Assembly (NCBI GenBank): GCA_034933245.1
Contig: JAYFNX010000009.1
Coordinates: 6,505-70,504, forward strand
Direction of reading: 5' to 3'
DNA length: 64,000 nucleotides
Source: Candidatus Pelethousia sp.
Lineage (GTDB): Bacteria > Bacillota > Clostridia > Christensenellales > CAG-138
The notes under the pieces are model-generated. The model made no database searches and was not told where the DNA came from. It saw nothing but the letters and a program-made list of their open reading frames with translations. Every line of letters begins with the position of its first letter. Within the stretch, counting starts at the first letter, position 1. The position numbers were made by a program, and so were the translations under genes. This document shows, one piece after another, positions 5,965 to 63,031 of this stretch.

Positions 5965-5965
5965 G

Positions 5966-7636: not shown

Positions 7637-7655
7637 AGCTTCTCTCCTTCCGCTA

Positions 7656-9370: not shown

Positions 9371-9382
9371 AGTGCACCTCCG

Positions 9383-9562: not shown

Positions 9563-9574
9563 TGTTTGCCTCCC

Positions 9575-10078
9575 TTAACCCAGAATCTCTTCCACGGTCT
9601 TGCCTCTCAGCTTGGCAATCTGCTCGGCGGTACGCAGCTGGGTAAGGCCGTCGATCGTGGCCTTCACGCAGTTGGCCGGATTGTTGGAGCCGTAGCTCTT
9701 TGTCCGGATATCCTTTACGCCCACCATCTCCAGCACCGCACGGGCGGGACCGCCCGCAATAACGCCGGTACCGTCTTCGGCGGGGAGCATGCGGACATGG
9801 CCCTTGCCAAACTTGCCTTCCACGGCATGGGGAATGCTGGTGCCCACCAGGGAAACCTCGATCATATGGCGCTTGGCATCTTCAATGCCTTTGCGCACGG
9901 CCTCGGGAATTTCCGCGGCCTTGCCCATTCCAACGCCCACATGACCGTTCTCGTCACCCACGACCATAAGTGCGGAGAAGCGGAAGTTGCGGCCGCCTTT
10001 GACGACCTTGGCAACACGGTTGATGGATACGAGCCTTTCTTTCAGATCCAATGTAGATGCATCGATACGCTTCTGCAT
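9575..10078 (-). CDS. rpsE: 30S ribosomal protein S5 (uS5)
   Basis: ORF track, 167 aa, ...[24 protein letters not shown]... Confidence 0.95.
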
Positions 10079-10088
10079 GATTACCTCC

Positions 10089-10457
10089 TTAGAATTTCAG
10101 CCCGGCCGCGCGGGCACCCTCGGCCAAATCCGCAACGCGGCCTGTATACAGGTAACCGCCGCGGTCAAACACGACCTCTTCGATGCCCTTATCCATAGCC
10201 CGTTTGCCTACGAGCTCACCCACCAGTTTGGCGGCTTCCTTTTTATTCTTGCCGCTAAGCTGTCCTTTGATCTCCGGATCCATGGTGGAAGCGGAAGCCA
10301 AGGTTGTGGATGCTTCGTCGTTTATAACCTGGGCGTAGATGTTGTTCAGGCTGCGGTATACATTGAGCCTGGGCCTTTCGCCCGTGCCCACGATGTGGCG
10401 GCGGGTACGGTCGTGCCTTGCCTTGCGCACAGCGTTTTTATTGATCTTTGAAACCAT
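10089..10457 (-). CDS. rplR: 50S ribosomal protein L18 (uL18)
   Basis: ORF track, 122 aa, ...[20 protein letters not shown]... [22 protein letters not shown]. Confidence 0.95.
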
Positions 10458-10479
10458 ACTGCTACTCCTTCTCTACGCC

Positions 10480-11019
10480 TTATTTGCCTGTCTTGCCTTC
10501 TTTGCGGCGCACATACTCGTTCTCGTACTTAATGCCTTTGCCCTTGTAGGGTTCCGGCGGGCGCACCTTGCGGATATCGGCAGCGATCTGCCCTACCTGC
10601 TGTTTGCTAATGCCCTTCACAGATACACGGTTGGGAGCGGGTACCTCGAAGGAAATGCCCTGGGGTGCGTCAAATTCTACGGGATGAGAATAGCCCACGT
10701 TCAGGACGAGCTTGGTGCCCTGCATCTGTGCACGATAGCCTACGCCTACGATCTCCAGATTCTTCTGGTAGCCCGCCGTTACGCCCACCACCATGTTGTT
10801 GATGAGGGAACGGGAAAGGCCGTGCAGCGCCCGGTGCTCTTTTTGCTCGCTGGGCCGCTTTACCGTAAGGATGCCGTCTTCGATGGAGAGCTTCATCTCC
10901 GGAGAGATATTTTCGCTCAGTTCGCCCTTGGGGCCTTTAACATTCACGGTGTTATCGTCGCCGACCGTGATTGTCACTCCGCCAGGGATGTGGATCGGAA
11001 GTTTTCCGATTCGTGACAT
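10480..11019 (-). CDS. rplF: 50S ribosomal protein L6 (uL6)
   Basis: ORF track, 179 aa, [13 protein letters not shown]... Confidence 0.95.
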
Positions 11020-11093
11020 GTGTTACACCTCCAAATGATAATTTCTCTTTAACATGGCTTTGGGGGACGGCATGCCGTTCCCCATACCAGCGC

Positions 11094-11492
11094 TTACCAA
11101 ATGTATGCCAGCACTTCGCCGCCCACACCCTGTTTGCGGGCTTCCCTGTCGGTCATGATGCCACGGGAAGTGGAAAGAACGGCGGTTCCCAGCCCATTAA
11201 GCACTTTGGGCAGGTTGTCCTTGCGGGCGTAGACCCGCAGGCCGGGCTTGGAAATCCTCTTAAGACCGGTGATGACCTTTTGGCGGTTAGGGCCGTACTT
11301 GAGGATGATGTGGATGTTCTTTGCCACGCCCTCCTCCCGGAGGTCAAAACTCTTGATATAGCCTTCCTCGAGCAAAATCTCGGCAATGGCCTTCTTGACC
11401 GTGGAAAGGGGGACGTCCACCTCATCGTGCCTGGCGATGAGAGCATTGCGGATACGAGTAAGCATATCAGCGATGGGATCGGTTATAACCAT
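11094..11492 (-). CDS. rpsH: 30S ribosomal protein S8 (uS8)
   Basis: ORF track, 132 aa, [17 protein letters not shown]... Confidence 0.95.
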
Positions 11493-11514
11493 AATTCGTA
11501 CTCCTTTCTACAGT

Positions 11515-11700
11515 TTACCAGCTGGCCTTGCGCACACCGGGGATTTCTCCCTTGTAGGCCATCTCCCGGAAGCAAATGCGGCAGATGCCGTATTTGCGAA
11601 GCACGCTGTGGGGCCGGCCGCAGATGCGGCAGCGAGTATAGGCCCGGGTGGAATACTTCGCCTCGCGGGATTGCTTGATTTTCATGCTAGTCTTTGCCAC
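11515..11700 (-). CDS. rpsZ: 30S ribosomal protein S14, type Z (zinc-binding)
   Basis: ORF track, 61 aa, with [23 protein letters not shown]. Confidence 0.95.
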
Positions 11701-11718
11701 GATGATTCTTCCTCCTTA

Positions 11719-12336
11719 TCAAGCCTGAATGAAGGGCATGCCCATGAGACTGAGCAATTCCTTCGCTTCTTCGTCGGTCTTGGCGGTGGTAACGAGCACG
11801 ATGTCCATACCGCGCACCTTGTCGACGTCGTCATAGTTGATCTCGGGGAAGATCAGCTGCTCCTTTACGCCCATGGCATAGTTGCCGCGGCCGTCGAAGC
11901 TTGTATCGGAAATGCCGCGGAAGTCGCGAACCCGGGGCAATACGATATTCATGAGCTTATCCGCAAAGTAATACATGCGGTCCCCCCGCAGGGTAACCTT
12001 TGCACCCACGTTCATGCCTTCGCGAACTTTAAAGTTAGCAACGGACTTCTTGGCTTTGGTTACGATGGGCTTCTGGCCGGCGATGAGCGCCAGCTCATTC
12101 ACGGCGGCCTCCAGGCCCTTTGCATTATCCTTTTCGGAACCCAAGCCCATGTTCAACACGATTTTCTCCAGCTTGGGAACCTGCATGGGGTTGATATAGC
12201 CAAACTTTTGCTTCATCGCGGGCGCTACTTCTTCGGTATACTTGACCTTGAGGCGAGGCGCTTCGGTAAAGGGCTTGGCTTCCTCCTGCTTTTTCTTCTT
12301 GGCGGATGCCGAAGAAGCGGTATCTTTCTTTGCCAT
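11719..12336 (-). CDS. rplE: 50S ribosomal protein L5 (uL5) with a Lys/Ala-rich N-terminal extension
   Basis: ORF 11719..12384. Start set at ATG 12336 ([23 protein letters not shown]...) behind GGAGGA. The canonical uL5 core begins at [10 protein letters not shown]. Confidence 0.9.
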
Positions 12337-12353
12337 TCTCTTTTCCTCCTGCC

Positions 12354-12671
12354 TTAGTCGATATTTTTGCCGCACTTTTTGCAAACGCGGACTTTCTTAT
12401 CGCCCTCATAGGCATGGCCCACGCGGGTGGCTTTGCCGCACTTGGGGCAAATAAGCATCACGTTGGAGGCGTTGATGGTGCCTTCCTTATTGATGCGGCC
12501 GCCCTGCTCGCCCTGCTTGCGGGGCTTGGTGTGGCAAACGGTCATGTTGGCATTTTGCACCACGACCCGCTCCTTATCCGGAAACGAGGCCATAATTTTG
12601 CCCTGCTTGCCCTTATCCTTGCCGGCGATGATGACGACGGTATCGTCCTTCTTGACATTCAGCTTGTTCAT
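12354..12671 (-). CDS. rplX: 50S ribosomal protein L24 (uL24)
   Basis: ORF track, 105 aa. KOW motif [21 protein letters not shown]. Confidence 0.95.
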
Positions 12672-12685
12672 TCTGTCATCCTCCC

Positions 12686-13054
12686 TTAGAGCACTTCGGG
12701 CGCGAGGGATACGATCTTCATGTAATCCTTCTCGCGCAGTTCGCGCGCGACAGGCCCAAAGATACGAGTGCCGCGGGGCTGCTTCTGGTCGTTGATGATA
12801 ACGGCTGCGTTATCATCAAAGCGAATATAGCTGCCATCGGGCCGCTGGGTGCCAGAAACTGTGCGCACCACCACCGCGCGGACCACGTCCTTCTTTTTGA
12901 CCGCACCGCCGGGGGAAGCCGACTTGACGGAGGCGACGATGGTGTCGCCGATGTTGGCGCTCTTGCGGTGGGATCCACCCAGCACACGGATGCACATGAT
13001 CTCTTTTGCGCCGCTGTTATCCGCTACCTTCAAACGGGTTTGAGGTTGAATCAT
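12686..13054 (-). CDS. rplN: 50S ribosomal protein L14 (uL14)
   Basis: ORF track, 122 aa, [27 protein letters not shown]... Confidence 0.95.
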
Positions 13055-13073
13055 ATCGGTTCTCCTTTCCGGC

Positions 13074-13331
13074 TTACTTGGCCTTTTCTATAATCTCGGC
13101 CACACGCCAACGCTTATCTTTGCTCAGCGGGCGAGTTTCCATAATCTTGACGGTATCTCCGATGCCGCAGGCGTTCTCTTCGTCATGGGCCTTGAACTTG
13201 CGGGTGCGGTTTACCATCTTTCCGTAGAGGGGATGGCGCACCTTGGTCTTGATCGCCACCACGACGGTCTTATCCATCTTGTCGCTTACAACAACGCCGG
13301 TGCGGGTTTTACGATAGCCTCTGTTCTCCAC
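13074..13331 (-). CDS. rpsQ: 30S ribosomal protein S17 (uS17)
   Basis: ORF track, 85 aa, ...[18 protein letters not shown]...HPLYGK... Confidence 0.95.
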
Positions 13332-13352
13332 GATGATATCCTCCTTTCACCC

Positions 13353-13553
13353 TTACTCAGCTGCCTTGAGCTCACGCTCACACAGGAGCGTTTTCACCCG
13401 GGCCACGTCCTTCTTGCAGTCACGGACGCGCTGCGGGTTTGTGAGCTGGCCGGTCGCCATCTGGAAACGGAGGTTGAACAGCTCTTCCTTGAGCTCTTTT
13501 TCTTTTACCGCGAGCTCTTGGTTAGAAAGTTTTCTCAGTTCGCTAGCCTTCAT
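13353..13553 (-). CDS. rpmC: 50S ribosomal protein L29 (uL29)
   Basis: ORF track, 66 aa, [14 protein letters not shown]...[14 protein letters not shown]. Confidence 0.95.
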
Positions 13554-13980
13554 TGCTCTCGCCTCCTGCCTCGGTCACTTTCTTTGCGATCTTGCACTTG
13601 ATGGGCAGCTTGTTCATGGCAAGGCGCAGAGCCTCCCGGGCTACCTCTTCCTCTACCCCCGCGATCTCAAAGAGAACGCGGCCAGGCTTAACGACTGCCA
13701 CCCAATATTCGGGCGCACCCTTACCGGAGCCCATGCGGGTACCGGCCGGCTTTTGCGAGACGGGCTTATCAGGGAAGATCTTGATCCACACCTTACCGCC
13801 GCGCTTGATGTAACGTGTCATGGCAACACGCGCCGCCTCAATCTGGTTGCTGGTTATCCAGCCGGGTTCCTGCGCCACAAGACCATATTCACCATATGCA
13901 ATAAAGTTGCCGCGATGGGCCTCGCCCTTCATGCGGCCACGATGCACTCTCCTGCGCTTGACTCTTTTAGGCATCAACAT
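13543..13980 (-). CDS. rplP: 50S ribosomal protein L16 (uL16)
   Basis: ORF 13543..14040. Canonical start [11 protein letters not shown] at 13980. Confidence 0.95.
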
Positions 13981-13994
13981 GGTTATTTGCCTCC

Positions 13995-14639
13995 TTACGC
14001 TTTCTTTTGCTTGCTCAGCACTTCGCCCTTGTAGATCCACACCTTGCAGCCGATCCGGCCATAGGTGGTGTGCGCCTCGGCAAAGCCGTATTCGATATCC
14101 GCACGCATGGTCTGCAGGGGAATGGAACCGTCGTGATAACCTTCGGTTCGAGCGATTTCAGCGCCGCCCAGGCGTCCGGCACACATAAGCTTGATGCCCT
14201 TGGCGCCGGCTTTCATGGAGCGCTGCATGGCCTGCTTCATAGCCCGGCGGAAGCTGATGCGCTTCTCGAGCTGGGCCGCAATGTTTTCGGCCACGAGCTG
14301 GGCGTTGGCATCCGGGTTGCGGATCTCCATGATGTTCACGTTCACGGGCTTGCCGATCAGGGCGGAAACGTCCGTACGGATAGCTTCCACGCCCACGCCG
14401 CCTTTGCCTATCAGCATGCCGGGGCGAGCGGTATGGATGCTCACCGTCACCTTGTTGGCCGCACGCTCGATGTCGATCTTGGCCACGCCGGCGCTGTAAT
14501 GCGCCTTCTTAAGGTGATCGCGGATCTTCCTGTCCTCTACAAGGTAGTCGGAGAAGTCCTTCTTGGAAGCGTACCAACGGGTATTCCAATCGCGGATAAC
14601 GCCTACGCGGAAGCCATTCGGATTAACTTTTTGTCCCAT
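13995..14639 (-). CDS. rpsC: 30S ribosomal protein S3 (uS3)
   Basis: ORF track, 214 aa, [23 protein letters not shown]... Confidence 0.95.
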
Positions 14640-49727: not shown

Positions 49728-50026
49728 AAGCGCAGCGAAACAACATCCAGCCGTTTTTGAATAGGGAGGGAAGAATCCTTCAATTGCCCCGCAGACGGGG
49801 ATGCCGGTATGCGGTACTCGGCTATTTGGCCGAAAAATTCGAGCCGGGTCAAAGCTTTACCGAGGGACAGGTCAATGCGATCTGCAACCAATGGCATACC
49901 TTCGGGGATTATTTTGTTTTACGCCGGGAACTTGTGGATAGCGGCTTTTTGCAGCGGGAACCTGACGGCTCCCGTTATTGGAGGGCGGCCGCGGTGCCTG
50001 GCGCCTCGGTTGAAACCGATCCATGA
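49724..50026 (+). CDS. DUF2087-like protein
   Basis: ORF 49688..50026. ATG 49724 overlaps the upstream stop (ATGA). ...FTEGQVNAICNQWHTFGDYFVLRRELVDSGFLQREPDGSRYWR. Confidence 0.6.
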   Translation: MKAQRNNIQPFLNREGRILQLPRRRGCRYAVLGYLAEKFEPGQSFTEGQVNAICNQWHTFGDYFVLRRELVDSGFLQREPDGSRYWRAAAVPGASVETDP

Positions 50027-50101
50027 AGAGCCGGCCAATCGTCCCTTTGTTTTTTTCAATCCAAACGAAGCAGCCATGGTAAACCCGTGTCCCATCAACG
50101 C

Positions 50102-50127
50102 AAAAGAGTGGCGCAAGCCACTCTTTT
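50102..50127. terminator. bidirectional rho-independent terminator between convergent genes
   Basis: AAAAGAGTGGC-gcaa-GCCACTCTTTT. Confidence 0.8.
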
Positions 50128-50176
50128 GCTATGTTGTCATGGTTCGTCGTCGCAGCATGGCATGGCGTTTTTTTGC

Positions 50177-52588
50177 CTAGCCCACTACAATGTTGATGAT
50201 GTTCTTCACCACGATTACCTTGCGCACGGTTTTGCCTTCCGTAAACGCCTGCACTTCAGGCAGGGCCATGGCCTTTTCCTGCGCTTCCTGCTGCGGTATA
50301 TCCACGGGAAGGTCGATGCGGGCGCGCACCTTACCGTTTACCTGCACGCCGTATTCGATGGTTTTCTGGGCCAGGGCATTTTCATCCCAAGCGGCCCAAG
50401 GTGTGGCGTAAACGGGCGTTTCATAGCCCAGCAGCTCGTTCATCTCCTCACAAATGTGGGGGGCTACGGGAGAAAGCAGGATGAGCAGGGTGTGAAGTTC
50501 TTCCTTCGTCACGTCGCCTTTTGCGTAGAACTCGTTAACCAGGCTCATCATGGCGGCGATGGCGGTGTTATATTTCATCCGCTCATAATCTTCGCTTACC
50601 TTCTTGATGGTGCCATGGACGGCTGCGCAAAGATCGGACCGAATGCCATCCTCTTCGGAAAGCATATCCTGCAACCGCCATACCCGTTCCAGGAAGCGGC
50701 GGCAGCCCCGGGCGCCGGTGGTGCTCCAAGGGATGGGTTGGTCGAATGCGCCCATGAACATTTCATAAAGGCGGAAGGAATCCGCGCCCATTTCCTTTAC
50801 AATATCGTCCGGATTGATTACATTTCCCCGGGATTTGCTCATTTTATCGCCGTTTTCACCCAGGATCATGCCATGGCTTGTGCGCTTGCGGTAAGGCTCC
50901 GGCGTAGGCACCAAGCCGAGATCATAGAGGAATTTATGCCAGAACCGGGAGTAGAGCACATGCAGCGTGGTGTGCTCCATGCCGCCGTTATACCAATCCA
51001 CGGGCGTCCAGTAGTTCAGGGCCTCGGGGCTGGCTAGAGCCTGGTGGTTGTGGGGGTCCGTATAGCGCAGGAAATACCAGCTGGAACCGGCCCAGTTGGG
51101 CATCGTGTCCGTTTCCCGTTCCGCCGCGCCGCCACACTTGGGGCAGGTGGTATGAATCCAATCCGTTGCCCGGGCCAGCGCGCTGGAGCCATCGTCGCTG
51201 GGCTCGTAGTTCTGGATTTCCGGAAGGGTTAGGGGCAGCTGGTCATAGGGCAGAGGAACCCATCCACACTTCTCACAATGAACCAAGGGGATCGGCTCGC
51301 CCCAATACCGTTGGCGGGAAAACACCCAGTCCCGAAGCTTATAGTTCACCTTCCGGTGGCCGATGCCCTCCTTTTCCAGGTAGTTCTTCATGGCCTCTAT
51401 CGCCTCTTCCACCTGCATGCCCGTGAGGAAGCCGGAGTTGACCATTTCGCCCGTAGCGCATTCGACATAGGCTTCTTTGGTCACATCGCCCCCCGCCACC
51501 ACCTCAATGATGGGTAAGCCGAAGGTTTTCGCGAATTCCCAGTCCCGGGTATCATGGCCGGGCACGGCCATGATGGCGCCGGTACCGTAGCTCATAAGCA
51601 CATAATCCGACACCCAGATGGGGATCTCCTTCCCGTTCACCGGGTTCACCGCCATTATGCCCGCGAGGGGAACGCCCGTCTTATCCTTGGCCAACTCGCT
51701 GCGCTCAAAATCGCTCTTGCGGGCAGCCGCCTGCCGGTAGGCGCGCACAGCTTCCATGTTTTGAATGCGGTCGGCCCATTTCTCAATGTAAGGATGCTCC
51801 GGGGACATAACCATATAAGTCACGCCAAAAAGGGTATCCGCCCGGGTCGTGAAAACGGTGAGGATGTCCTCGCTTCCCGCCACGCGGAAATCCACCTCCG
51901 CGCCCTCGCTGCGGCCAATCCAGTTTCGCTGCTGGATTTTTACCCGATCGATATAATCCACCGTATCCAGATCATCGATGAGGCGCTGGGCATAAGCGGT
52001 TATTTTCAGCATCCACTGGCTGCGCACCTTCTGGATGACAGGGCCGCCGCAGCGCTCGCAAACGCCCTCCACCACTTCCTCATTGGCAAGGCCCACCTTG
52101 CAGCTTGTGCAGAAATTGATGGGGATTTCGGCTTTATAGGCCAAGCCGTGCTCATAAAGCTTAAGAAAAATCCACTGGGTCCATTTATAATATTCCGGGT
52201 CGGTCGTATTCACTTCCCGGGACCAATCGAAGCTGAAGCCCAGCCGCTTAAGTTGCTTGCGGAAAAGGGCGATATTCTTTGCCGTGACCTTGGCCGGATG
52301 TTCCCCCGTCTTAATGGCGTAATTCTCCGTGGGCAGGCCGAAGGCATCGTACCCGATAGGATAGAGCACGTTGTACCCCTCCATCCGGCGTTTACGGGCA
52401 ATGATGTCCATGGCAGTATTGGAGCGCGGATGGCCCACATGCAGCCCCGCGCCGCTGGGATACGGGAACTCGATGAGGGGATAGAACTTGGGCATGGTAT
52501 AATCGTCCTTGGCCTCAAAACAATGGGCTTCCTCCCACTTCTTCTGCCACTTGAGCTCCACCTGGTCGTGGTCGTAACGGTTTGACAT
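50177..52588 (-). CDS. leuS: leucyl-tRNA synthetase
   Basis: ORF 50177..52666. ATG 52588 ([20 protein letters not shown]) behind GGAGGA. HIGH-type (GLHVGHPRS) and KMSKS motifs present. Confidence 0.97.
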
Positions 52589-52594
52589 AAGCTT

Positions 52595-52850
52595 CCTCCA
52601 TGATGCGTATTCACAAAAAAACAGGCCCCCATCCCTTTTTAAGAGACGGAGTGCCCGCGGTACCACTCTTATTGGCGCTTCCGCGCCCGCTTTTGCCCTT
52701 TAACGCAGGGAATACGCCGGGCCTACTGCAAGCTTTCAGCACCGGGGCTCGGCGGCGAGCTTGGGCCTTTTTGCATACCGCCTTGCACCGCCCGGCGGCT
52801 CTCTGCATGCAAAACAAGGCTTACTGTTCCGCGTCACAGCCTGAATTTGT
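52595..52850 (-). promoter_or_regulatory. T-box leader (Leu) controlling leuS
   Basis: Minus-strand RNA shows AGAGAG...GGUGCAA (Stem I). A GAAAGCUUGCAGUA loop contains the Leu codons CUU/UUG. The T-box AAUAAGAGUGGUACCGCGG lies at 52655-52673 and is followed by a U7 tract. Confidence 0.75.
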
Positions 52851-52942
52851 TGGAATCCTCTCAATTATATTTTGCAAAATCAGAAAAGTCAAGGTATACT
52901 CTCTTTGGTATACCGCTTTGTCGGATCAAGGAGATGAATGTG

Positions 52943-53728
52943 ATGTTTTTAATGGATTACCACCTGCACAGCGAATTTTCAGACGATTGTACTGCGCCTC
53001 TGCGCGCCCAATTGGAGGCCGCCCAGGCGGCAGGCCTAGCAGAGGTTTGCTTCACGGATCATATCGATTTTGACGGTGTGGGCCTGCTCCCCGCCGACCT
53101 TGTGGCAAGAGATGCCGCCATCGAAGCGCTCCGGGGCGATTTCCCGGGAATTACCATCCGCCGGGGTGCGGAGGTTGGTCTAAAGGATGCGGTTTCCGCT
53201 TCCCAATCCTTCGCTTTCTGTGAAAAACGGAACCTTGATTTTATCATTGCCTCCGTTCATATTGTCCAAGGGGTAGATGCATATTGCCCCGTCTATTTTG
53301 ATAGCCGCACCCAAGCGGAAATCTATGCCGGGTATCTTGCTTGGGCTGCACAGATTTTGCCAACCTATTCTTATTTTAATGTCCTGGGGCATTATGATTT
53401 TTGCGCCAAATTCGCGCCCTATTCCAACAGGGCATTTCGTTATTCCCATGCTCCCGAGGCGCTGGATAGCCTGTTTCGCCAGTTGGTGGCGGCAGGCAAG
53501 GGCATGGAAGTAAACACCTCGGCTTGGCGGGAAGACCCGGCCTGGGGACTGGACGTGCTCCGTCGCTACCGAACACTTGGAGGAGAGTTCGTCACCGTGG
53601 GCAGCGATGCTCATCAGCCGCAGCGGGTAGGCCGCCGGATCAAGGAAGCGTTGGACCTGGCCCGCGCGGCGGGCATCCCCTATGTAGCAACCTTCCAAGC
53701 CATGCAGCCCACCTTTCATCGCCTCTAA
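52943..53728 (+). CDS. PHP-family histidinol-phosphatase-like protein
   Basis: ORF 52847..53728. ATG 52943 (MFLMDYHLHSEFSDDC) behind GGAG. Contains ...FTDHIDFD... and ...GSDAH... Confidence 0.8.
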   Translation: MFLMDYHLHSEFSDDCTAPLRAQLEAAQAAGLAEVCFTDHIDFDGVGLLPADLVARDAAIEALRGDFPGITIRRGAEVGLKDAVSASQSFAFCEKRNLDFIIASVHIVQGVDAYCPVYFDSRTQAEIYAGYLAWAAQILPTYSYFNVLGHYDFCAKFAPYSNRAFRYSHAPEALDSLFRQLVAAGKGMEVNTSAWREDPAWGLDVLRRYRTLGGEFVTVGSDAHQPQRVGRRIKEALDLARAAGIPYVATFQAMQPTFHRL

Positions 53729-53748
53729 GTTTATAAAAGCAACAGGTT

Positions 53749-53780
53749 GCCGCCCTTATAGGGGCGGCGGTTTGTATTTG
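53749..53780 (+). terminator. rho-independent terminator
   Basis: GCCGCCC-ttatag-GGGCGGC followed by GGTTTGTATTTG. Confidence 0.6.
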
Positions 53781-53855
53781 TTCAACCATGCGGGAACCTA
53801 TGGCGGCGGTTTGCCGGATGGTTCAAATTCCAGAAGCATGGTTCCTTTAAAATTA

Positions 53856-53883
53856 TTGACATATGCCATAAATCCTATATAAT
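53856..53883 (+). promoter_or_regulatory. strong sigma-70-type promoter of the nifU-like/permease operon
   Basis: TTGACA (53856-53861), 16-bp spacer, TATAAT (53878-53883). Confidence 0.6.
53857..53873. repeat. 17-bp direct repeat copy 1 (TGACATATGCCATAAAT), overlapping the -35 box and spacer; candidate operator
   Basis: Read directly. Partner at 53895-53911 with one mismatch. Confidence 0.7.
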
Positions 53884-53894
53884 GAACATTAATG

Positions 53895-53911
53895 TGACAT
53901 ATGCCGTAAAT
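53895..53911. repeat. 17-bp direct repeat copy 2 (TGACATATGCCGTAAAT), just downstream of the -10 box; candidate operator
   Basis: Read directly. Confidence 0.7.
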
Positions 53912-54165
53912 TCAATTGCGGCAAGGCCCTTCTTGGCAGGATATTTATTTATCCATGGCCTTTTTGGTTTAGGCCCAGGGGATTGGGATGCTTTTAATTC
54001 ATGCAAGCAAAGGGAAGCGCCAAAGTAAATAGCAGAAACAGGGGAGGCGCTTAGGCGACGTAACAGTGGGCAGGAAGAACTGCCTGCAAGACGAGCTGCA
54101 AACCATCGGGTTTGAATATCCGCGCATCCTTCTTCGGATGTGCGCAGAAAATAGGGAGAGAAAGT

Positions 54166-54561
54166 ATGTCTATCGGTTTATTTACGGATGAAGTTATCGA
54201 CCATTTTTCCAATCCTCGGAATGCCGGCGCGTTGGAAGACGCAAACGGCATCGGCAACGCGGGCGATCCCCACTGCGGCGACAGCATGACGCTCTATATA
54301 AAGGTTGAAGAGGATGTTGTTACGGACGCACGTTTCAAAATCTCCGGCTGTGTTGCAGCTCTTGCTTCCGCCAGCGTCACCACGGTTCTTGTGAAAGGCA
54401 AAACCGTGGACCAGGCGCTGAAAATAACAAATCAGGACATTGCGGATGCGCTGGGCGGGCTTCCGGAGCAGAAAATGCATTGCTCCGTTCTGGGAGAAGA
54501 GGCGATACAAAACGCCATTTCCGACTATCGGCAAAATAAAATGGGGCGTGGCTGCCCATGA
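54166..54561 (+). CDS. NifU/IscU N-terminal-domain-like Fe-S scaffold protein
   Basis: ORF 54112..54561, ATG 54166. HFSNPRNAG...GNAGDPHCGDSMTLYIKV...ARFKISGCVAALASAS...MHCSVLGEEA carries the three conserved Cys residues. Confidence 0.8.
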   Translation: MSIGLFTDEVIDHFSNPRNAGALEDANGIGNAGDPHCGDSMTLYIKVEEDVVTDARFKISGCVAALASASVTTVLVKGKTVDQALKITNQDIADALGGLPEQKMHCSVLGEEAIQNAISDYRQNKMGRGCP

Positions 54562-55031
54562 CCATAGCGCTATATGGCATCGCCGTTTTTGCTTTAGCCG
54601 TATCGTTTATTGCAAGCAGGGAGAAAACGCTTCTGGCATTGAAAAGGGCCTGGAAATCCGTAGAGAACATTCTCCCGCAGTTGCTGGCGATTTTTCTTGT
54701 TATCGGGATGCTGCTGGCGGTTCTTACGCCGCAGCAGATATCCCGGTTGCTTGGCCGTGAATCCGGCTGGCCTGGGGTGCTAATGGCCGCGGTCATCGGT
54801 TCCGTTACCCTGATCCCCGGCTTTGTGGCCTTTCCCTTATCGGCCGCGCTTGTGAAAAGCGGCGCAGGATACATGCAGGTTGCGGCCTTCATCTCTACCC
54901 TCATGATGGTGGGCATTCTCACGATCCCGGTGGAAATTCGTTACTTTGGCAAGAAGGCGACCCTCGTGCGGAATGTTTCCGCATTTGCCTTTTCTCTGCT
55001 GGTAGCGTTGGTTATGGGGGCGATTTTATGA
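54558..55031 (+). CDS. permease half-protein (split YraQ/DUF318-type permease, subunit 1)
   Basis: ORF track, 157 aa, four or five TM helices. 4-nt overlaps with both neighbouring genes. Confidence 0.55.
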   Translation: MTIALYGIAVFALAVSFIASREKTLLALKRAWKSVENILPQLLAIFLVIGMLLAVLTPQQISRLLGRESGWPGVLMAAVIGSVTLIPGFVAFPLSAALVKSGAGYMQVAAFISTLMMVGILTIPVEIRYFGKKATLVRNVSAFAFSLLVALVMGAIL

Positions 55032-55576
55032 GGGAACTAGTCTTAAGGCTTATCAAGCGATACCGGCTCTTTCTTTTTCTTCTCCTAATCAACTTGGTCA
55101 TACGCATAGCATCCCCCGATTTGGGAAAAGCAGCGTTCCAGATCACAGGTTCCAATTTGCTTGAGATGCTGTCCGTCTTACCGCCCATTTTTATTTTGCT
55201 TGGGCTGCTGGATGTATGGGTGAAGCGGGAAACGATGATAAAATATATGGGCAAGCGCGCCGGTTTCTTGGGCGTACTCCTTGCGTTTCTCTTGGGCTCC
55301 GCTGCCGCCGGTCCTTTATATGCCGCCTTCCCCGTTGCCGTTATTTTGCTGAAAAAGGGCGCGTCCCTTTCCAATGTTTTCATTATGCTGGGGGCGTGGT
55401 CAACAACAAAGATCCCCCTCGTTCTTTTTGAGGCGTCCTCTATGGGCCCGCGGTTTGCGCTTATTAGGTTGGGTATGGATATCATCGGAATTGCCGCTAT
55501 CGCTTATTTTACGGAGAAGGCTTTATCAACAGAAGAGAAACATGAAATTTATGAGCGGGCGTTAAAAGACGGCTGA
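55028..55576 (+). CDS. permease half-protein (split YraQ/DUF318-type permease, subunit 2)
   Basis: ORF track, 182 aa, polytopic, translationally coupled to the upstream gene. Confidence 0.55.
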   Translation: MRELVLRLIKRYRLFLFLLLINLVIRIASPDLGKAAFQITGSNLLEMLSVLPPIFILLGLLDVWVKRETMIKYMGKRAGFLGVLLAFLLGSAAAGPLYAAFPVAVILLKKGASLSNVFIMLGAWSTTKIPLVLFEASSMGPRFALIRLGMDIIGIAAIAYFTEKALSTEEKHEIYERALKDG

Positions 55577-55843
55577 TCTCCGTTTATTTGGCCTCCCCAT
55601 AGGCCCTGGCGCAAAGCCGGTATGGCAAGCCGTTCCAGGGAGCCTGCTCTTCCCGCCGCCCTTTTGTTAAAAAACTTCTAATACTTTTTAGATTGCTTGT
55701 ATCTTCTCCGCTTCTTATGTTACTATGCTTCTGATAATTATGATGTTGCAGGCACAAGCCTTTCCTTTAACCCTATGGTTTACCACGCCAAGGCCTTGCG
55801 CTTCATGGGAGGAAGATCCTTTTTCATGCTGCGAATGTACACT

Positions 55844-56545
55844 ATGAAACCAGCGTCCATGCTTCTAGCATGCATTCTGCTGCTTACCGGCTGCGTAAGC
55901 CCAGCCTCCGTGCCCCAGCAAACCCATCCGCTGGCTACCGCTTTGCCGACGCCGCAAGAGCATACGCCGGCCCTGGAAGCAACGCCGGCCCTTTCGTCCG
56001 CTCTGCCAACGGAAGCGGAACCCTCGGCCGATCCCTTCTTAGAGGCGGCCGCCCTTGGGGCAGAATATCTGCAGATTTTAACTGGGCAGGACTTTTCCGC
56101 CTTCTCCTATGAGGTGGAGTTCCTGTCGCACAGCGGCAATGGGGAATGGGACGTTTCCTTTAGCATTCCCGATCAGCCCGTTACCGCCAATGTCCGCTTT
56201 GAGGCGGATGGCACGCTCACCTTTTACGCACTTTGGACGCACGGAGAGACGGATGCGAGCCTTCTCCTGCCATTGGCGCCCATGCCGGAAGCGCTGACGG
56301 GAGCGGACTATAAACAAATCATCCCCTATTGGTATAACCAGCTTCCCATTCGGGAGGATGCGCCTTTTAAGCGCATGGAACTGGTGCAAAAGGATAACAC
56401 CCTGCAATATCCCGATTCCTCCTATAGGCTCAACACCGTAAAAATGCGTTTTGAGGATGGTTCCGTGCTAACCTGCCTATACGATCAGGGGACGTGCAGG
56501 CTCACTTATTTTTGCCATTATACGGCCGAAAGCCTGGGCCGCTAA
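55844..56545 (+). CDS. lipoprotein of unknown function
   Basis: ORF 55697..56545. ATG 55844 gives MKPASMLLACILLLTGC (signal peptide with lipobox). Confidence 0.65.
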   Translation: MKPASMLLACILLLTGCVSPASVPQQTHPLATALPTPQEHTPALEATPALSSALPTEAEPSADPFLEAAALGAEYLQILTGQDFSAFSYEVEFLSHSGNGEWDVSFSIPDQPVTANVRFEADGTLTFYALWTHGETDASLLLPLAPMPEALTGADYKQIIPYWYNQLPIREDAPFKRMELVQKDNTLQYPDSSYRLNTVKMRFEDGSVLTCLYDQGTCRLTYFCHYTAESLGR

Positions 56546-57327
56546 TTTGCATGTAGCAGTTCCAAGACGGCCCGCAGTGCTTCCGCCGGAGGCTGCCCGG
56601 GGGCGCTCTCTTGGCTTGCGGCGCCAAAGGTAAAAGCCGAACCGAACACGCCGCCGCCCAGCCTGGTAAGCATACCTAAGCGCCCCATGCCCATGGTGGC
56701 AACCGGAATGCTCAGGCGTGTTCGCGCGGTTTCCGTAGCCGAAAATATCGCCAACACATCCGCGGGGCATTGCGGGGTTACGGCAAGCTTGGCTATATCC
56801 GCCCCTGCATCCTCCATCCTTAAAAGCGTTCGGAGCATGTTTTCTTCCGACGGCGTTTTTTGATAATCATGCAGGGAAAGTAAACTTCTACCGCCCGCGG
56901 CCTTGTTTTCCGCCGCTAGGGCAGCCGCAGTCTCCTCCCCTCGGCCCAGCTCGATGTCGATTATATCGGCCTGCCCACTCTCCATTGCCGCCCGTAAAAC
57001 CGGCATATAATCTTCCTGACAGTCTTCCCTGCCTGCCAGTTCCGCCTCCGTGCGGTAGGTAAAGAGCAGGGGCATGTCTCTCAGGTGTATTCGCAGTTCT
57101 CCCAGCAAGCAAAAAAGGCGCCGTAAATCAGGTTTCTCCCCCGGCCCCCCGGCGCGCCAGAGGGTTTCCTTTGCCGCGTCAAACCGCCACTCAGCCATAT
57201 CCACGGGCAGCGTCCGCAGGGCTTTGGCCTGGGAAATCACTTCCCGTGCCGTTCTTCCCAAAATCGGTGTGCAAAGCTTAGGCGCGCCCATCCCCAGGGC
57301 CAGATTTCTTACGTGCAGCGTTGCCAT
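56542..57327 (-). CDS. aroD: type I 3-dehydroquinate dehydratase
   Basis: ORF 56542..57468, ATG 57327 (MATLHVRNL...). ...PKLCTPI...D..EWRFD...DIAKLAV.P...MGMGRLG..TRL.GG.FGSAFTF. Confidence 0.8.
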   Translation of the reverse strand: MATLHVRNLALGMGAPKLCTPILGRTAREVISQAKALRTLPVDMAEWRFDAAKETLWRAGGPGEKPDLRRLFCLLGELRIHLRDMPLLFTYRTEAELAGREDCQEDYMPVLRAAMESGQADIIDIELGRGEETAAALAAENKAAGGRSLLSLHDYQKTPSEENMLRTLLRMEDAGADIAKLAVTPQCPADVLAIFSATETARTRLSIPVATMGMGRLGMLTRLGGGVFGSAFTFGAASQESAPGQPPAEALRAVLELLHAN

Positions 57328-57352
57328 ACAGTTTTCCTTTCCCGCAAAAATC

Positions 57353-57679
57353 TCAGGGTTTTGTGTTCTCCGTTTGCCCGCCATGCGCCGCCTCTGCCTG
57401 CCGGGCTTCCTCCTGCGCCTGTTTTTTTTCATATAACCGGTTTCTGTACCACAGTACCAGATCCGCAAAAACCATTACGGCATTGAGCATGTAAAAATAG
57501 GTTACAAAATCACGAGTCGTCATCAGCTTATTGATGATGCCAAAGATATAGCCGGTCTCAATCAGCACCGAAAAAATGGCGCTTTTCCCCGCCGTGCTCC
57601 GGCTTTTATAGGTTTTGTAAAGCGCCGCCGGCCAAGAAACGCCAAAGCAGATCAACATCATCAATTCAAATATAGGCAT
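57353..57679 (-). CDS. small three-helix PQ-loop/SemiSWEET-like membrane protein
   Basis: ORF track, 108 aa. SWPAALYKTYKSRSTAGKS resembles a PQ-loop motif. Confidence 0.45.
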   Translation of the reverse strand: MPIFELMMLICFGVSWPAALYKTYKSRSTAGKSAIFSVLIETGYIFGIINKLMTTRDFVTYFYMLNAVMVFADLVLWYRNRLYEKKQAQEEARQAEAAHGGQTENTKP

Positions 57680-58119
57680 GGTTTATTCACAATCCTTTGC
57701 AGCTTGGAGATCCTGTCTAGTTTGCATTATTCTAAGGAATGGTAGCACATGTTCTTGAAAAGTGCAAGGCCGGGCACCGGGGCGTTTTTTGTGTTTCCGC
57801 AGAAACGATGCGAACACCATAAGCAGGGAGCGGATGGTGCTGATGATGAACACCTCCTTCTAAAGCAAATCGACAGCCTTCATTTGAAAAAAATGAGCGT
57901 AAACGCAAGGTGTCCTATGCCTGTTTTTTGCCATGTTGCATGGGTGCTTCGCCCTATTTTATTCATGTTCTTGCAAACGGCTAGTACGTCGCATATGATA
58001 TACATATTGTGTTCCCGCAGGCGGGGCAAGCAACGTGCTTTTTGTTTTGAATGCGGCATGTCCAAGCAAAAATAGGTTTGCATTTTGGAATTTGGGCATA
58101 ACCCGCCTGCGCACAGCCG

Positions 58120-58629
58120 GTGAAAGGCTTTGGCAGTTTTCGCGGCTTTTATAAGTTTGAGAAAGAAGTGAACGGCTTGAGAGAGAGAACCGATCCTGTG
58201 CAGGCCAACGCATTATTTCATCTTTTATTAGAAGCGCAAAGCCTGAAACAGTTTTTAAAAGACAATGAGCAGGAAATGCAATTGCAGTCTTTTTGCGAAT
58301 ATATAACGGAGCTTTGTGAGAAGCAAGGCGAAGTGCCGGAGCATATCATCAAGCGAACGAATCTGGAGCGTTCCTTTGGCCACCAGCTTTTTAAAGGCAC
58401 AAGGAATCCCTCCAGAGATACGGTTTTGCAATTGGCTTTTGGATTTAACGCCGATGTAATCAGAGCGCAAGAACTTTTACGATATGCCGGAATGAGCGCC
58501 TTATATCCAAGGATGAAACGCGATGCCGTTATCATTTATTGCCTGCATAATCGAATATCCATCGTGGAGACGCAAACCATCCTGCACGAGCTGGCGTTAC
58601 CCCTTATCGGTGCAGGTAAAACCAAGTAA
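58120..58629 (+). CDS. XRE-like helix-turn-helix protein of a family common in Clostridia; start codon uncertain
   Basis: ORF track, 169 aa, ...FCEYITELCEKQGEVPEHIIKRTNLERSFGHQLFKGTRNPSRDTVLQLAFGF...LLRYAGMSALYPRMKRDAVIIYCL... Confidence 0.65.
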   Translation: MKGFGSFRGFYKFEKEVNGLRERTDPVQANALFHLLLEAQSLKQFLKDNEQEMQLQSFCEYITELCEKQGEVPEHIIKRTNLERSFGHQLFKGTRNPSRDTVLQLAFGFNADVIRAQELLRYAGMSALYPRMKRDAVIIYCLHNRISIVETQTILHELALPLIGAGKTK

Positions 58630-58820
58630 GCTGTCCTTTTTTCAGTATACGATGGAATAAGCATGGATCGGCAACCGGGTTTTGTTCATGACCCTGCAAA
58701 AGGAGTAAACCGCCTCCTGCGTCTCGTTTTCACGGGATAATTCCTGTTGCCTTATAAAATTCTAGAAAAACGAATTGCAAACTTCGCTTACATATGATAA
58801 AATCACATTCGGCACAATAA

Positions 58821-58907
58821 GCCGGTGTGTTGGAATTGGCAGACGAGGCGGACTCAAAATCCGTTGGTAGCGATACCGTGTGGGTTCGAGTCCCACCACC
58901 GGCACCA
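58821..58907 (+). tRNA. tRNA-Leu (anticodon CAA), intact, with encoded CCA
   Basis: Hand fold: acceptor GCCGGTG/CACCGGC, anticodon loop CT-CAA-AA, long variable arm GGTAGCGATACC, T-arm GTGGG-TTCGAGT-CCCAC, then A-CCA. Confidence 0.9.
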
Positions 58908-59017
58908 AAGTCCTTATGAATCCTGGGTTTGACAGGGTTTCGTAAGGGCTTTTTTGTTCCCCTGAAAGAAGGGCAGCTCCAACGGATTTTCAGGCAAAAA
59001 GAAAGGAATCCGTTGCC

Positions 59018-59974
59018 ATGAAACGAAAGCAAATTGTAGGGAAATCCATCAGTATTCAAGAAGCCTTTGAGCAGTTCCAACGCTTCAACCAAACCAAGAA
59101 TCTATCCCCTGAAACGATACGATATCACGACAACCATTCTAAGCCCTTCTTTGCATTTCTAGAGGATGTTTCCCAGCCTGTTGACTCTATCACCAAGGAG
59201 AAGATTGATGCCTATATCCTGCATTTAAAGGCAAAGGGAACGGTAAACGATACCACCATCAATACCCGGTTAAGAATGGTGCGGGGCTTTCTCTATTACT
59301 GCATGAAGCGGGGGCTTATGCCCACCTTTCAGATAGCACAAATACGGGTTACACAGCCTGTAAAGGAACCCTATACCAAGGCCGAGCTGGCCTTGCTCTT
59401 AAAGAAACCAAATATCAAAAGCTGTTCCTTTGCCAGATACAGGAACTGGGTAATCGTCAATTTTCTGTTGGCTACAGGGTGCCGGGCTTCCACGCTGGTG
59501 AACATTCGGATAGAGGATGTGGATTTAACTGGCGGCATGGTACTCTTCCGTCATATGAAAACGAGAACCCAGCAGATGGTCCCCCTGTCCAAAACCATAA
59601 TCGGTGTACTCGAAGAATACCTCACCTACCGGGATGGACAGCCATCCGAACCCCTGTTTATTTCTGAATATGGCAATGCCTTAAAGGTAGATACGCTGGA
59701 TAGCTGCATCCGGGAATATAATCTTTCCTGTGGGGTAGAAAAAACCTCCCTTCATCTGTTTAGACATACCTACGCAAAGCTTTTTATCACTGCTGGGGGT
59801 GATCCCTTTCGGCTGCAAAAGCTATTAGGCCATAGTGATCTCACCATGACCAAACGGTATGTAGCCCTGTATGCTGAAGATTTAAAGGAAAACTATGATA
59901 AGCTGAATCCCTTAGAACAGTTATCAACCGGGAGAAACGGGAACCGGGTTAAATTGAACGTAGCCCACCGATAG
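59018..59974 (+). CDS. int: tyrosine recombinase/integrase
   Basis: ORF track, 318 aa. SAM-like N-terminal domain. Catalytic residues in context: ATGCRAS (R), HLFRHTYA (H-x-x-R), LGHSD (H), TKRYV (Y). Confidence 0.9.
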   Translation: MKRKQIVGKSISIQEAFEQFQRFNQTKNLSPETIRYHDNHSKPFFAFLEDVSQPVDSITKEKIDAYILHLKAKGTVNDTTINTRLRMVRGFLYYCMKRGLMPTFQIAQIRVTQPVKEPYTKAELALLLKKPNIKSCSFARYRNWVIVNFLLATGCRASTLVNIRIEDVDLTGGMVLFRHMKTRTQQMVPLSKTIIGVLEEYLTYRDGQPSEPLFISEYGNALKVDTLDSCIREYNLSCGVEKTSLHLFRHTYAKLFITAGGDPFRLQKLLGHSDLTMTKRYVALYAEDLKENYDKLNPLEQLSTGRNGNRVKLNVAHR

Positions 59975-60740: not shown

Positions 60741-61715
60741 ATGACAAAAAGACTTCCAAGCCATAATGTCCCACTTCCTCTTGTCGCTGATGTTGTATGC
60801 TATGTAAACAATAAGGGCTCCTCAAGGATTGAAGAACTAAGGGCTTTCACAAACAAAAGTGACGCATATATCAGGAGCTGTTTGGCAATATGTAAGTTAC
60901 TAGATATTATTCACGAAGATGGGACTGTATCCTCTTTCGTAAACGAATTAGGAAAAACTCCAAATGAAGCCTTAAAACTAAACGTGTTAAGAAAGCTTAT
61001 ACAGGAGTTTGAGCCATTCATTATATTCATCCAGTATCATTTGAATGGTGAATCTCTCGAAGATTCGGCACGCAAAGTATATACAGCCTTCAAATTCGAG
61101 GGAAAAGATTATCTGTTTCTAAAAGACTTGTTTTTGGCATGGGGAATGACCACCGATATTTTTTCACCGGCCCCTGACAGCTTTGTTCTAGAAACGGATA
61201 TCCAAGAAAGAATATCTATTATCAATTCATTTGCCTTTAACCTTGATGATGACATGGCAATAAGGATGTACATTGGAAATAGTCTAGGTGCTGATGTTTT
61301 TTCATCATTATTGCCTGCCGAATTAGCAGAACTAGTAGATGCGTATAAAAAATGTGAGACTGACGCTAGAGGAGCAATCGAGTGTACAGGCCGAGCCTTT
61401 GAGGATTTTCTACGTAGGATTTCTTTATCAGTCAATATTGATGCTAGTGGCAAAAATGGTATTGGGCAAATTGTTAATGCTCTTTACAACCACAAAAATG
61501 CAGCGGGAATATTGGATAATAAAATACATAGCAAACAGTCAAGCATAGGTTCTGCTATTGCGGACATCCGCAATATGGCTGGACATAGCCTAGAGGCTCG
61601 CACATTAGAGAGGTGGGACTTGACATCACATAGCGCCAAAATGTACGCGGAGTTAGTGCTATCAACAATCAAAAGTATAAGTAACTACGTGCAACATTCA
61701 AATCATACTTTTTGA
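60741..61715 (+). CDS. winged-helix-like N-terminal region fused to a C-terminal HEPN (Abi_C/DUF4145-like) domain
   Basis: ORF track, 324 aa. The C-terminal helical domain carries the Rx4H motif in SAIADIRNMAGHSLEA, preceded by ARGAIECTGRAFEDFLRRI. The N-terminus has wHTH-like segments (SSRIEELRAFTNKSDAYIRSCLAICKLLDII). Confidence 0.6.
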   Translation: MTKRLPSHNVPLPLVADVVCYVNNKGSSRIEELRAFTNKSDAYIRSCLAICKLLDIIHEDGTVSSFVNELGKTPNEALKLNVLRKLIQEFEPFIIFIQYHLNGESLEDSARKVYTAFKFEGKDYLFLKDLFLAWGMTTDIFSPAPDSFVLETDIQERISIINSFAFNLDDDMAIRMYIGNSLGADVFSSLLPAELAELVDAYKKCETDARGAIECTGRAFEDFLRRISLSVNIDASGKNGIGQIVNALYNHKNAAGILDNKIHSKQSSIGSAIADIRNMAGHSLEARTLERWDLTSHSAKMYAELVLSTIKSISNYVQHSNHTF

Positions 61716-61905: not shown

Positions 61906-61982
61906 TGGAATTGGCAGACGTGACGGACTCAAAATCCGTTGCCAGCGATGGCGTGTGGGTTCGAGTCCCACCACCGGCACCA
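61906..61982 (+). pseudogene. 5'-truncated, diverged tRNA-Leu(CAA) copy (attR side)
   Basis: Matches the tRNA from the D-arm to CCA, with compensatory changes in the D stem (ATG/CGT versus TTG/CGA), the anticodon stem, and the variable arm (GCCAGCGATGGC versus GGTAGCGATACC). The 5' acceptor strand GCCGGTG is absent. Confidence 0.8.
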
Positions 61983-62066
61983 AACACATATAATCCGAAC
62001 CACTTACGACAGGTTGCACTTGTTGGCGAAGGGTTCGGATTTGTGTTATACTTAGGTTAATTATTT

Positions 62067-62100
62067 AGAGGGCAAGCAATCGGCTTGTCCTCTTATGTTT
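62067..62100 (+). terminator. hairpin plus T-tract downstream of the displaced tRNA 3' end (probable native tRNA-Leu terminator)
   Basis: GAGGGCAAGC-aatcg-GCTTGTCCTC (one G-T pair), followed by TTATGTTTTGTGT. Confidence 0.5.
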
Positions 62101-62152
62101 TGTGTCGTATAATATTAATGGTAATTATTTGTTTTGCAATGGAGGTGCAGGC

Positions 62153-63031
62153 ATGGCTAAGAAGTTTAATGCTTCACAATTCAAGAGCCAAATGCGGCAA
62201 GCTCAAAACAAGGTAAACCAAGAAGTAAGAAAGCTCAACAACGAAATTAACAAATATAATCGAGAAGTTAAATCAGCAGTTAATAAGTATAATCAAGAAG
62301 TGCGCCGCTATAATTCACAGGTTCGTCAAAATCGAGCTCGTATAGAAAGAGAACTCCGTAAGCTATCGTCACAGCCAGCTTTTCGTGTTACAACAACATA
62401 CACAACATCTGTAAGAACCTTAAATACCACTTATGGACAAGTCGCATCGTATTATGATACGTTGGACTATCCAAGCGAATTTGAAGACCGCTTTTATTCT
62501 GACATAGAACAGGAAAACGCCAATAGTCTTGAAACAGCAAACGCGATAGTCAACGACGCCCCCTCAGAAGCACCTGCGGCATCCCTTCAAGACAGCATTA
62601 TTATTGAACAATTGGCACATATTTCTATTGACTTAGATAATCGTTGGCGTGGCGCACTGTTTTCTCTGAACCCATCAAACCCAGATGCGACCAGGCATTT
62701 TTGCACAAGTGCCAGAGAGATATTTACTGAAATATTTAACGCTAAAGCTCCAGATGAATTAGTTTTTTCAAAATATCCGAATTGTGAGAAAACGCCTAAC
62801 GGTAACGCCACACGTCGTTCTAAAATCAATTATTTTCTTGGAAAAAAGGGAATCTCAAACCCTAATGCGGAAAATTTTGTAGAAGAGGACATCACGAATA
62901 TATTGGAATTGTTCCATGTTTTGAGTGATGGTACACATGGAGAAGCAGGCCGATATAGCTTCGATAAGCTCTATGCAGTGAAGAAACGTGTTGAAGATGG
63001 CTTGATTTTCTTATGTAATATTGCCAGCTAA
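62153..63031 (+). CDS. protein with an 11-residue-repeat coiled coil at the N-terminus and an alpha-helical C-terminal domain of unknown function; candidate stand-alone defence or abortive-infection effector
   Basis: ORF 62102..63031, ATG 62153 behind GGAGG. Repeats VNQEVRKLNNE/INKYNREVKSA/VNKYNQEVRRY/NSQVRQNRARI. C-terminal region ...NPDATRHFCTSAREIFTEIF...ATRRSKINYFL...LFHVLSDGTHGEAG... AT-rich. Confidence 0.55.
   Translation: MAKKFNASQFKSQMRQAQNKVNQEVRKLNNEINKYNREVKSAVNKYNQEVRRYNSQVRQNRARIERELRKLSSQPAFRVTTTYTTSVRTLNTTYGQVASYYDTLDYPSEFEDRFYSDIEQENANSLETANAIVNDAPSEAPAASLQDSIIIEQLAHISIDLDNRWRGALFSLNPSNPDATRHFCTSAREIFTEIFNAKAPDELVFSKYPNCEKTPNGNATRRSKINYFLGKKGISNPNAENFVEEDITNILELFHVLSDGTHGEAGRYSFDKLYAVKKRVEDGLIFLCNIAS

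Follow-up and report, generated by a model that had tools for sequence, protein, structure and literature searches.

Among the described systems that come closest to the gene considered here are the HEPN effectors and toxins (HEPN-MNT, Abi_C/AbiJ-type and Csm6/Csx1), whose defining catalytic motif is Rx4-6H at the start of the last core helix and whose RNase active sites form across a dimer interface. The gene itself lies near the end of a 64,000-nucleotide stretch of contig JAYFNX010000009.1 of Candidatus Pelethousia sp., the whole of which is referred to as the window, and its product of 292 amino acids (aa) belongs to the computationally defined Pfam family pP_pnuc_1 (PF18165), the “predicted pPIWI-associating nuclease”. 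The 2013 pPIWI-RE paper does not describe the pP_pnuc_1 domain. With regard to the nucleases linked to prokaryotic Argonaute (pAgo) proteins, bAgaN of the long-B pAgo system (BPAN) has its nuclease domain at the C-terminus, behind a regulatory N-terminal domain, and requires octamer assembly for activation (PMC13535254; PMC10620215). Since bAgaN is a PD-(D/E)XK nuclease with an alpha-beta-alpha core and a D-EVK motif (PMC13535254), while an all-helical structure is predicted for the candidate, which lacks sequence matches in the PDB, an assignment of the candidate to bAgaN was rejected. The DREN-APAZ protein of SPARDA, which is of the DUF4365 type, shares with the candidate the label of an Argonaute-associated nuclease. 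The two-domain Aga_Nuclease branch (pP_pnuc_1 and pP_pnuc_2) does share the pP_pnuc_1 domain, which is N-terminal there and C-terminal here. We read the candidate as a solitary, Argonaute-independent anti-phage or abortive-infection effector with a predicted nuclease function, a reading that in our judgement stands about evenly balanced, and the gene as a cassette of one gene that is passed horizontally from genome to genome and inserts into defence islands, integrative elements and plasmids.

The match to PF18165 reaches an E-value of 4.2e-40 and 136.9 bits as opposed to a cut-off of 26.3 bits, and aligns residues 155-285 with profile positions 2-131 of 133, with the same outcome in a scan of the whole genome. 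The C-terminal 131 residues carry the family motifs RHFxTSxRE and THG; what differs is the position of the domain, which here is C-terminal, behind a coiled-coil module of ~135 aa. In a set of 230 diverse sequences with a median pairwise identity of 47%, down to 26%, conservation is 100% for N176, R181, R188 and E189, 99% for R164 and H262, 97% for H182, T261 and R279, 96% for D178 and 94% for E281. An earlier note on this DNA, made from the letters and the translated reading frames, had quoted three C-terminal motifs and pointed to a resemblance to predicted nucleases of conflict systems. All three motifs are present and hold the most conserved residues of the family, residues of catalytic type (polar Arg, His and Glu) are invariant across the homologues, and the resemblance agrees with the full-length, high-scoring PF18165 match as well as with a partial match to the PADLOC profile Aga_Nuclease (PDLC02413; E 1.4e-8, residues 173-268 on profile positions 25-122 of 267). 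Membership in the two-domain Aga_Nuclease branch was rejected because PDLC02413 is matched only over this part of its length and because PF18166 (pP_pnuc_2) was found neither in a search with the C-terminal part at E-values up to 10 nor among the 25 Pfam families listed. A second Pfam family was also not found on eight diverse C-terminal domains at E-values up to 10, NCBIfam gave no informative match, and in PHROGs only the coiled-coil region matched, weakly and with families whose function is unknown.

The gene had been taken for an orphan, which did not hold up, as it belongs to a widespread known family, in a coiled-coil architecture. A search of 5.8 billion proteins yielded 1,530 homologues, most of them full-length and almost all of 264-302 aa; the best 120 are full-length with 264-320 aa, apart from one fragment of 232 aa, and every named one among these 120 is called “hypothetical”. 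An exhaustive search with the C-terminal 143 residues gave 917 clusters at 50% identity, including 99 below 1e-30. Nearly all of the 917 represent proteins 280-320 aa long in which the domain is C-terminal. A relative is encoded in 236 species genomes (one genome per species); the best 80 align essentially end to end, and homologues down to 42% identity align over the full length. The carriers span many bacterial phyla, with Clostridia, Bacilli, Patescibacteria, Bacteroidota, Alpha-, Gamma- and Deltaproteobacteria, Planctomycetota, Acidobacteriota, Verrucomicrobiota and Chloroflexota, and include one archaeal metagenome-assembled genome of the Thermoplasmatota. An apparent fusion protein of 747 aa in one genome (G081) was rejected as a chance match inside the beta subunit of glycyl-tRNA synthetase. 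In locus L015 (1117-3189, minus strand), a sub-threshold PF18165 match of 19.8-22.3 bits falls in this synthetase subunit near the DALR junction; it is almost certainly a chance helical match, which matters when members of the family are counted.

The N-terminal 135 residues form a conserved helical module rather than a coiled coil and a spacer, given the predicted helices at residues 82-102 and 109-133 and the conserved Y83, S86, Y94 and IEQENAN motif. In the AlphaFold2 model of the full-length protein (48-sequence alignment; predicted local distance difference test score, pLDDT, 86; predicted template modelling score, pTM, 0.78), these two helices follow a long helix of residues 7-72. Across the family, no variation occurs at Y94, E119, E121 and N124, and almost none at Y83 and S86. 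The Thr/Ser-rich linker that the sequence had seemed to hold at this place is therefore not a simple linker. The repeat in the long helix is real: residues 15-70 are periodic, with a self-identity at period 11 of 13/45 positions (shuffle p ~1.5e-4, or ~0.009 if any period from 3 to 24 is allowed) and further peaks at 7, 14 and 18. What did not stand is the description as four regular 11-residue repeats, as NKxNxEV[RK] occurs in three copies at residues 19, 33 and 44, spaced by 14 and then 11 residues, and YNxxV[RK] at residues 35, 46 and 53, spaced by 11 and then, as an echo, by 7 residues. The four blocks proposed are out of register, the full motif being present in blocks 2 and 3 only, and the pattern is a mixed 11/7 one rather than a pure hendecad. 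A tandem repeat at the DNA level beneath the protein repeat was looked for and not found. The best support for a helix built of 11/7 coiled-coil units comes from the length steps within the family, since homologues vary in this helix by indels of exactly 11 or 7 residues, which preserve the phase, and the distance between the anchor motifs clusters at 29, 40 and 51 and at 47, 58 and 69 residues. In most homologues, an N-terminal SQxxS...RQ anchor precedes YNxxVR units that vary in number. In a minority of members (P0227, P0238 and P0256), unrelated tandem repeats of ~29-35 residues replace the YN-repeat helix before the same C-terminal domain, which suggests, from the sequences, a swappable repeat module. 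The YNxxV repeats also resemble LemA (PF04011), with residues 20-83 aligning to the C-terminal half of the profile at an E-value of 1.4e-5. Membership in LemA was rejected, as the match scores 25.4 bits, below the cut-off of 26.2 bits, and is confined to the repeat region, and for the latter reason it is probably an effect of repeats or composition.

The distribution of the gene is that of a mobile one. None of the 60 relatives sampled, seven of them from the same genus, has the gene, and it is carried by two of 401 genomes across the phylum sample, a third hit being a false positive in GlyS. The nucleotide similarity to the closest homologue, which is 78% identical, ends exactly at the borders of the open reading frame (ORF). 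A 53%-identical homologue is the cargo of a ~6.5-kb element with a serine recombinase and Mob_Pre, found at many insertion sites in metagenome assemblies. Six loci (L003-L008, ~7800-14450 in each) hold this integrative mobilisable element, beside different genes in each contig; it comprises a 43-aa ORF, the pP_pnuc_1 homologue, a small helix-turn-helix (HTH) protein, a zinc-ribbon protein, a Mob_Pre relaxase and a serine recombinase, and its cargo protein is indexed in 917 blocks of the collection. Homologues are present on nine plasmids. One of these is the conjugative plasmid pDSHI01 of Dinoroseobacter shibae (L097, 50623-51540; WP_012187151.1, hypothetical protein), where the gene has a type IV secretion operon on one side and, on the other, paired genes for a reverse transcriptase and a DNA polymerase; as D. 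shibae is a cultured model bacterium, this copy offers a handy experimental entry. Among 50,697 phage records, none carries a homologue.

The surroundings of the family were analysed in 83 homologue loci with flanks of up to 10 kb, and Pfam and PADLOC tallies were made on a sample of 149 neighbouring proteins. There is no conserved partner gene; any given neighbour family is found in 10 of the 83 loci at most, and none keeps a fixed position. Subunits of type I restriction-modification are frequent among the neighbours, which also include type III restriction-modification, GmrSD, AAA_15/AAA_21, TIR, DUF4365, AbiH/Abi_C, AbiLi, GajA, HmaC, Ppl and SMODS with SLATT, in addition to integrases, serine recombinases and Mob_Pre relaxases. 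Both the tallies and individual loci place the family recurrently beside known defence systems in unrelated genomes, and the closest homologue (L002) has Abi_C and AbiH genes just upstream. The stand-alone defence context that the earlier note had proposed is thus recovered, with homologues in defence islands and mobile elements and without a conserved partner. Being solitary and mobile, with defence-rich neighbours, on plasmids and in no phage record, the gene follows the pattern of a defence cassette on the side of the host or of the element.

The model of the C-terminal domain alone is confident (pLDDT 89.9, pTM 0.85) and all-helical, and in both this and the full-length model only two isolated bridge residues depart from the helical structure. 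In a Foldseek search of the PDB with the C-terminal domain, the three best matches are HEPN domains, namely 2hsb (probability 0.97), 2q00 (0.96) and the HEPN-MNT complex 8xeh (0.85), and the sacsin HEPN domain 3o10 and Csx1-Crn2 8y7g stand lower in the list. As modelled, the candidate domain is an all-helical bundle similar in size to those of the HEPN effectors and toxins, and the candidate resembles them in its conserved Arg and His residues and its defence-island context. Family membership, architecture, conserved residues, solitary status, horizontal mobility and defence-rich surroundings are results of the analysis; for nuclease activity, substrate, oligomerisation, trigger and defence phenotype, we infer the following scheme. 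The long N-terminal helix with its 11/7 repeats would pair both with the two helices that follow it and with further protein copies, and this pairing may set the oligomeric state, hold the protein inactive or serve as a surface that senses the invader. Activation would then bring the C-terminal HEPN-like domains together, so that the joined domains could cut nucleic acid by means of R181/H182, R188/E189, H262 and R279/E281. By analogy with the HEPN enzymes, the substrate would probably be RNA, and the cleavage would stop the growth of the infected cell.

Several results weigh against the reading as a nuclease effector of defence. The HEPN matches have E-values of 0.1-0.7 and template modelling (TM) scores of 0.42-0.58, which is not significant, and the motif Rx4-6H is absent, as no Arg lies 4-6 residues before H262 in L257-S-D-G-T-H262-G; the family consensus, LSDGTHG or FNxGTHG, likewise has no Arg 4-6 residues upstream of the His. 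With the full-length model, Foldseek searches of the PDB and BFVD returned generic helical bundles at E-values above 0.3 and no structural neighbour, and sequence and profile searches of the PDB with the full-length profile, the N-terminal half and the C-terminal domain profile gave coiled-coil noise or nothing. In the literature searched, no paper names pP_pnuc_1 or PF18165, and no experiment on any member was found. As for the neighbourhoods, genes in the homologue loci were called with a crude ORF picker, and the enrichment in defence genes is qualitative, the tallies having no matched background control. A comparison by hhalign of the C-terminal domain with the Abi_C-type neighbour family and with a small PF05168 set from related genomes gave probabilities below 1%, but two genuine HEPN families also failed to recognise each other in this comparison, so that its outcome counts neither for nor against. 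Likeness to HEPN is therefore a weak structural lead taken from the models, and the nuclease is a prediction; the HEPN-like module suggested in the earlier note stood in so far as the top three fold neighbours are HEPN domains, and fell short in that the matches are weak and Rx4-6H is missing.

The same absences lend themselves to another explanation, in which the protein is a non-enzymatic helical regulator, adaptor or anti-restriction or exclusion factor of mobile elements, whose conserved residues bind a ligand or partner. The protein has neither a canonical nuclease motif nor significant similarity to a characterised enzyme, and some HEPN-fold domains are thought to bind ligands and not to cut RNA. 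The genomic position in seven loci could also suit a modulator, as the gene sits there between hsdS and hsdR: it lies within 4 bp of a preceding hsdS-like gene in L033, L034, L035, L051, L052, L072 and L087, with an overlap in five of the seven, and in L051 (~5860-10170) it also overlaps the following hsdR by 4 bp and is thus embedded in a type I restriction-modification operon. However, defence genes are commonly inserted in such operons, an Arg/His/Glu set that is invariant down to 26% identity is more typical of an active site, and the lack of homologues in phage records speaks against a counter-defence on the side of the invader. We regard a non-enzymatic role as rather unlikely.

Rated as improbable is the explanation that the gene serves mobile elements as a toxin for addiction or stabilisation, or that it is a selfish cassette of a single gene, favouring retention of the carrier DNA and giving no protection against phages. 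It would account for the homologues carried as cargo by small integrative mobilisable elements and conjugative plasmids, and in L009 an Xre-type HTH gene overlaps the start of the homologue, with LexA- or HTH-type genes just upstream in other loci. Such upstream genes do not amount to a conserved antitoxin-like partner, however; those that are closely spaced are mutually unrelated (HNH, Xre, LexA, Fic, peptide deformylase and others), most loci have none, and the copy in the window has no upstream partner and follows a tRNA remnant, a hairpin and a promoter-like site of its own.

That the gene is an Argonaute accessory, and the copy in the window a stranded remnant of a pAgo system without function alone, is very improbable: although PADLOC groups the related profile under Argonaute-associated nucleases and three of the 83 loci hold the same architecture upstream of a SPARDA pair on the same strand, the other 80 have no pAgo within 10 kb, the 98.8%-complete host genome has a single copy of the pP_pnuc_1 family and no Piwi domain (PF02171) in a search that did detect Argonaute in control genomes, so that the association implied by the PF18165 name is seen neither in this genome nor in these 80 loci, the SPARDA abstracts give a two-protein complex of pAgo and DREN-APAZ, and an intact ORF with full-length homologues at 42% identity would be unexpected for a functionless remnant. 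The pAgo-bearing loci are L078-L080, which come from Pleomorphomonas koreensis, Acidomonas methanolica and Stappia sp. In them, 56-93 bp separate the gene from the DREN-APAZ (DUF4365) and short-pAgo pair downstream; the pair closely resembles the solved SPARDA complex 9jsb (E 2e-186 and 3e-258), and this set of three loci probably explains the Argonaute-derived Pfam name. These loci show a same-strand array of four genes, TIR, coiled-coil pP_pnuc_1, DREN-APAZ and short pAgo (L078 8787-13781; L079 8787-13781; L080 8742-13785), and its identical coordinates in P. koreensis and A. methanolica make it look like one island common to two genera. The two genes of the array that precede the pair, TIR and pP_pnuc_1, go unmentioned in the abstracts of the SPARDA papers found.

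In its most far-reaching form, the preferred reading of a solitary defence effector would make the family a widespread, unnamed, Argonaute-independent single-gene immune system, in which the N-terminal helix or repeats would sense or assemble, the C-terminal domain would be a new HEPN-like nuclease with RH...RE...THG in place of Rx4-6H, and the SPARDA-adjacent copies would be independent neighbours or add-ons and not ancestral; we consider this combined proposal unlikely as a whole. If the family works as a single-gene defence, the anti-phage repertoire would gain a common system, with at least 917 clusters at 50% identity, in many bacterial phyla and on gut mobile elements, and the database name, which wrongly links the family with Argonaute, would stand corrected. 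As the domain has no solved relative, a structure of it might then reveal a new type of nuclease active site on a HEPN-like scaffold. It would be sensible to include the whole family in a defence screen, while the gene in the window is an ordinary but reasonable single-gene defence candidate. For the window itself, the result is mainly one of annotation, as it adds a further solitary copy at a variable tRNA-Leu hot spot.

The coordinates of the gene, its domains and the features around it are given in Table 1. The ORF is intact, with the start codon ATG at 62153 and the stop codon at 63029-63031. Because the homologues begin at the same MAKKFNASQ, this ATG is taken as the start, and the upstream GTG at 62102 was rejected. 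A Shine-Dalgarno sequence, GGAGGTG, is located at 62141-62147, 6-12 nt 5' of the ATG. Further upstream, a promoter-like site TTGTCC-17-TATAAT (62085-62113) overlaps a terminator-like hairpin (62067-62093) that comes after the tRNA remnant, all three features being consensus matches only. The GC content across the gene is 0.38-0.41, compared with 0.50-0.61 at 50000-57499, upstream of the tRNA-Leu region of the window, in agreement with the AT-rich, foreign composition noted earlier.

Table 1. Positions in the window of the candidate gene, its parts and the neighbouring tRNA-Leu site
Feature	Position	Strand	Basis
pP_pnuc_1 gene, N-terminal helical/coiled-coil module and C-terminal domain	62153-63031	+	ORF translation, PF18165 match, 1,530 homologues
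Residues 7-72, one long predicted helix with NKxNxEV(R/K) and YNxxV(R/K) repeats, mixed 11/7 periodicity	62171-62368	+	AlphaFold2, shuffle tests
Residues 82-133, two conserved helices (TTYxxSVxxLNxSY, IEQENAN) completing the N-terminal module	62396-62551	+	AlphaFold2, conservation
Residues 155-285, all-helical pP_pnuc_1 (PF18165) domain	62615-63007	+	Pfam match, conservation, domain model
Upstream control region (hairpin, promoter-like site, Shine-Dalgarno)	62067-62147	+	Consensus matches only
tRNA-Leu(CAA)	58821-58907		
Tyrosine integrase	59018-59974		
attR, 79-nt partial copy of tRNA-Leu(CAA)	61906-61984	+	92% identical to 58831-58909

The proposed siting of the gene between the att site of an integrative element and a dead insertion sequence, at a tRNA hot spot, is likewise supported by the tRNA-Leu, the integrase, the 79-nt tRNA copy and a broken rve-type transposase remnant downstream of the gene. 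The tRNA copy closes a 3.1-kb integrase element, and the candidate gene begins 168 bp past it. This small element carries a HEPN gene distinct from the candidate: a 324-aa gene at 60741-61715 has the canonical RNxxxH motif, and the precomputed Pfam assignment of its homologues is Abi_C (PF14355). Its product and the C-terminal domain of the candidate show no sequence relationship in the hhalign comparison given above (probability below 1%), in which the HEPN-versus-HEPN control also failed. Relatives of the same genus match only the tRNA-Leu and ~50 nt before it and, within 58100-58820 of the window, not the 169-aa gene upstream, so that the DNA on both sides of the tRNA-Leu is variable. On the distal side of the island, the contig stops 1.5 kb beyond the window, and the same-genus relatives share the tRNA only. 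In one relative (G001, C3, 28087-29372), two tRNA-Leu copies are separated by 1.2 kb, an arrangement reminiscent of the small insertion described here.

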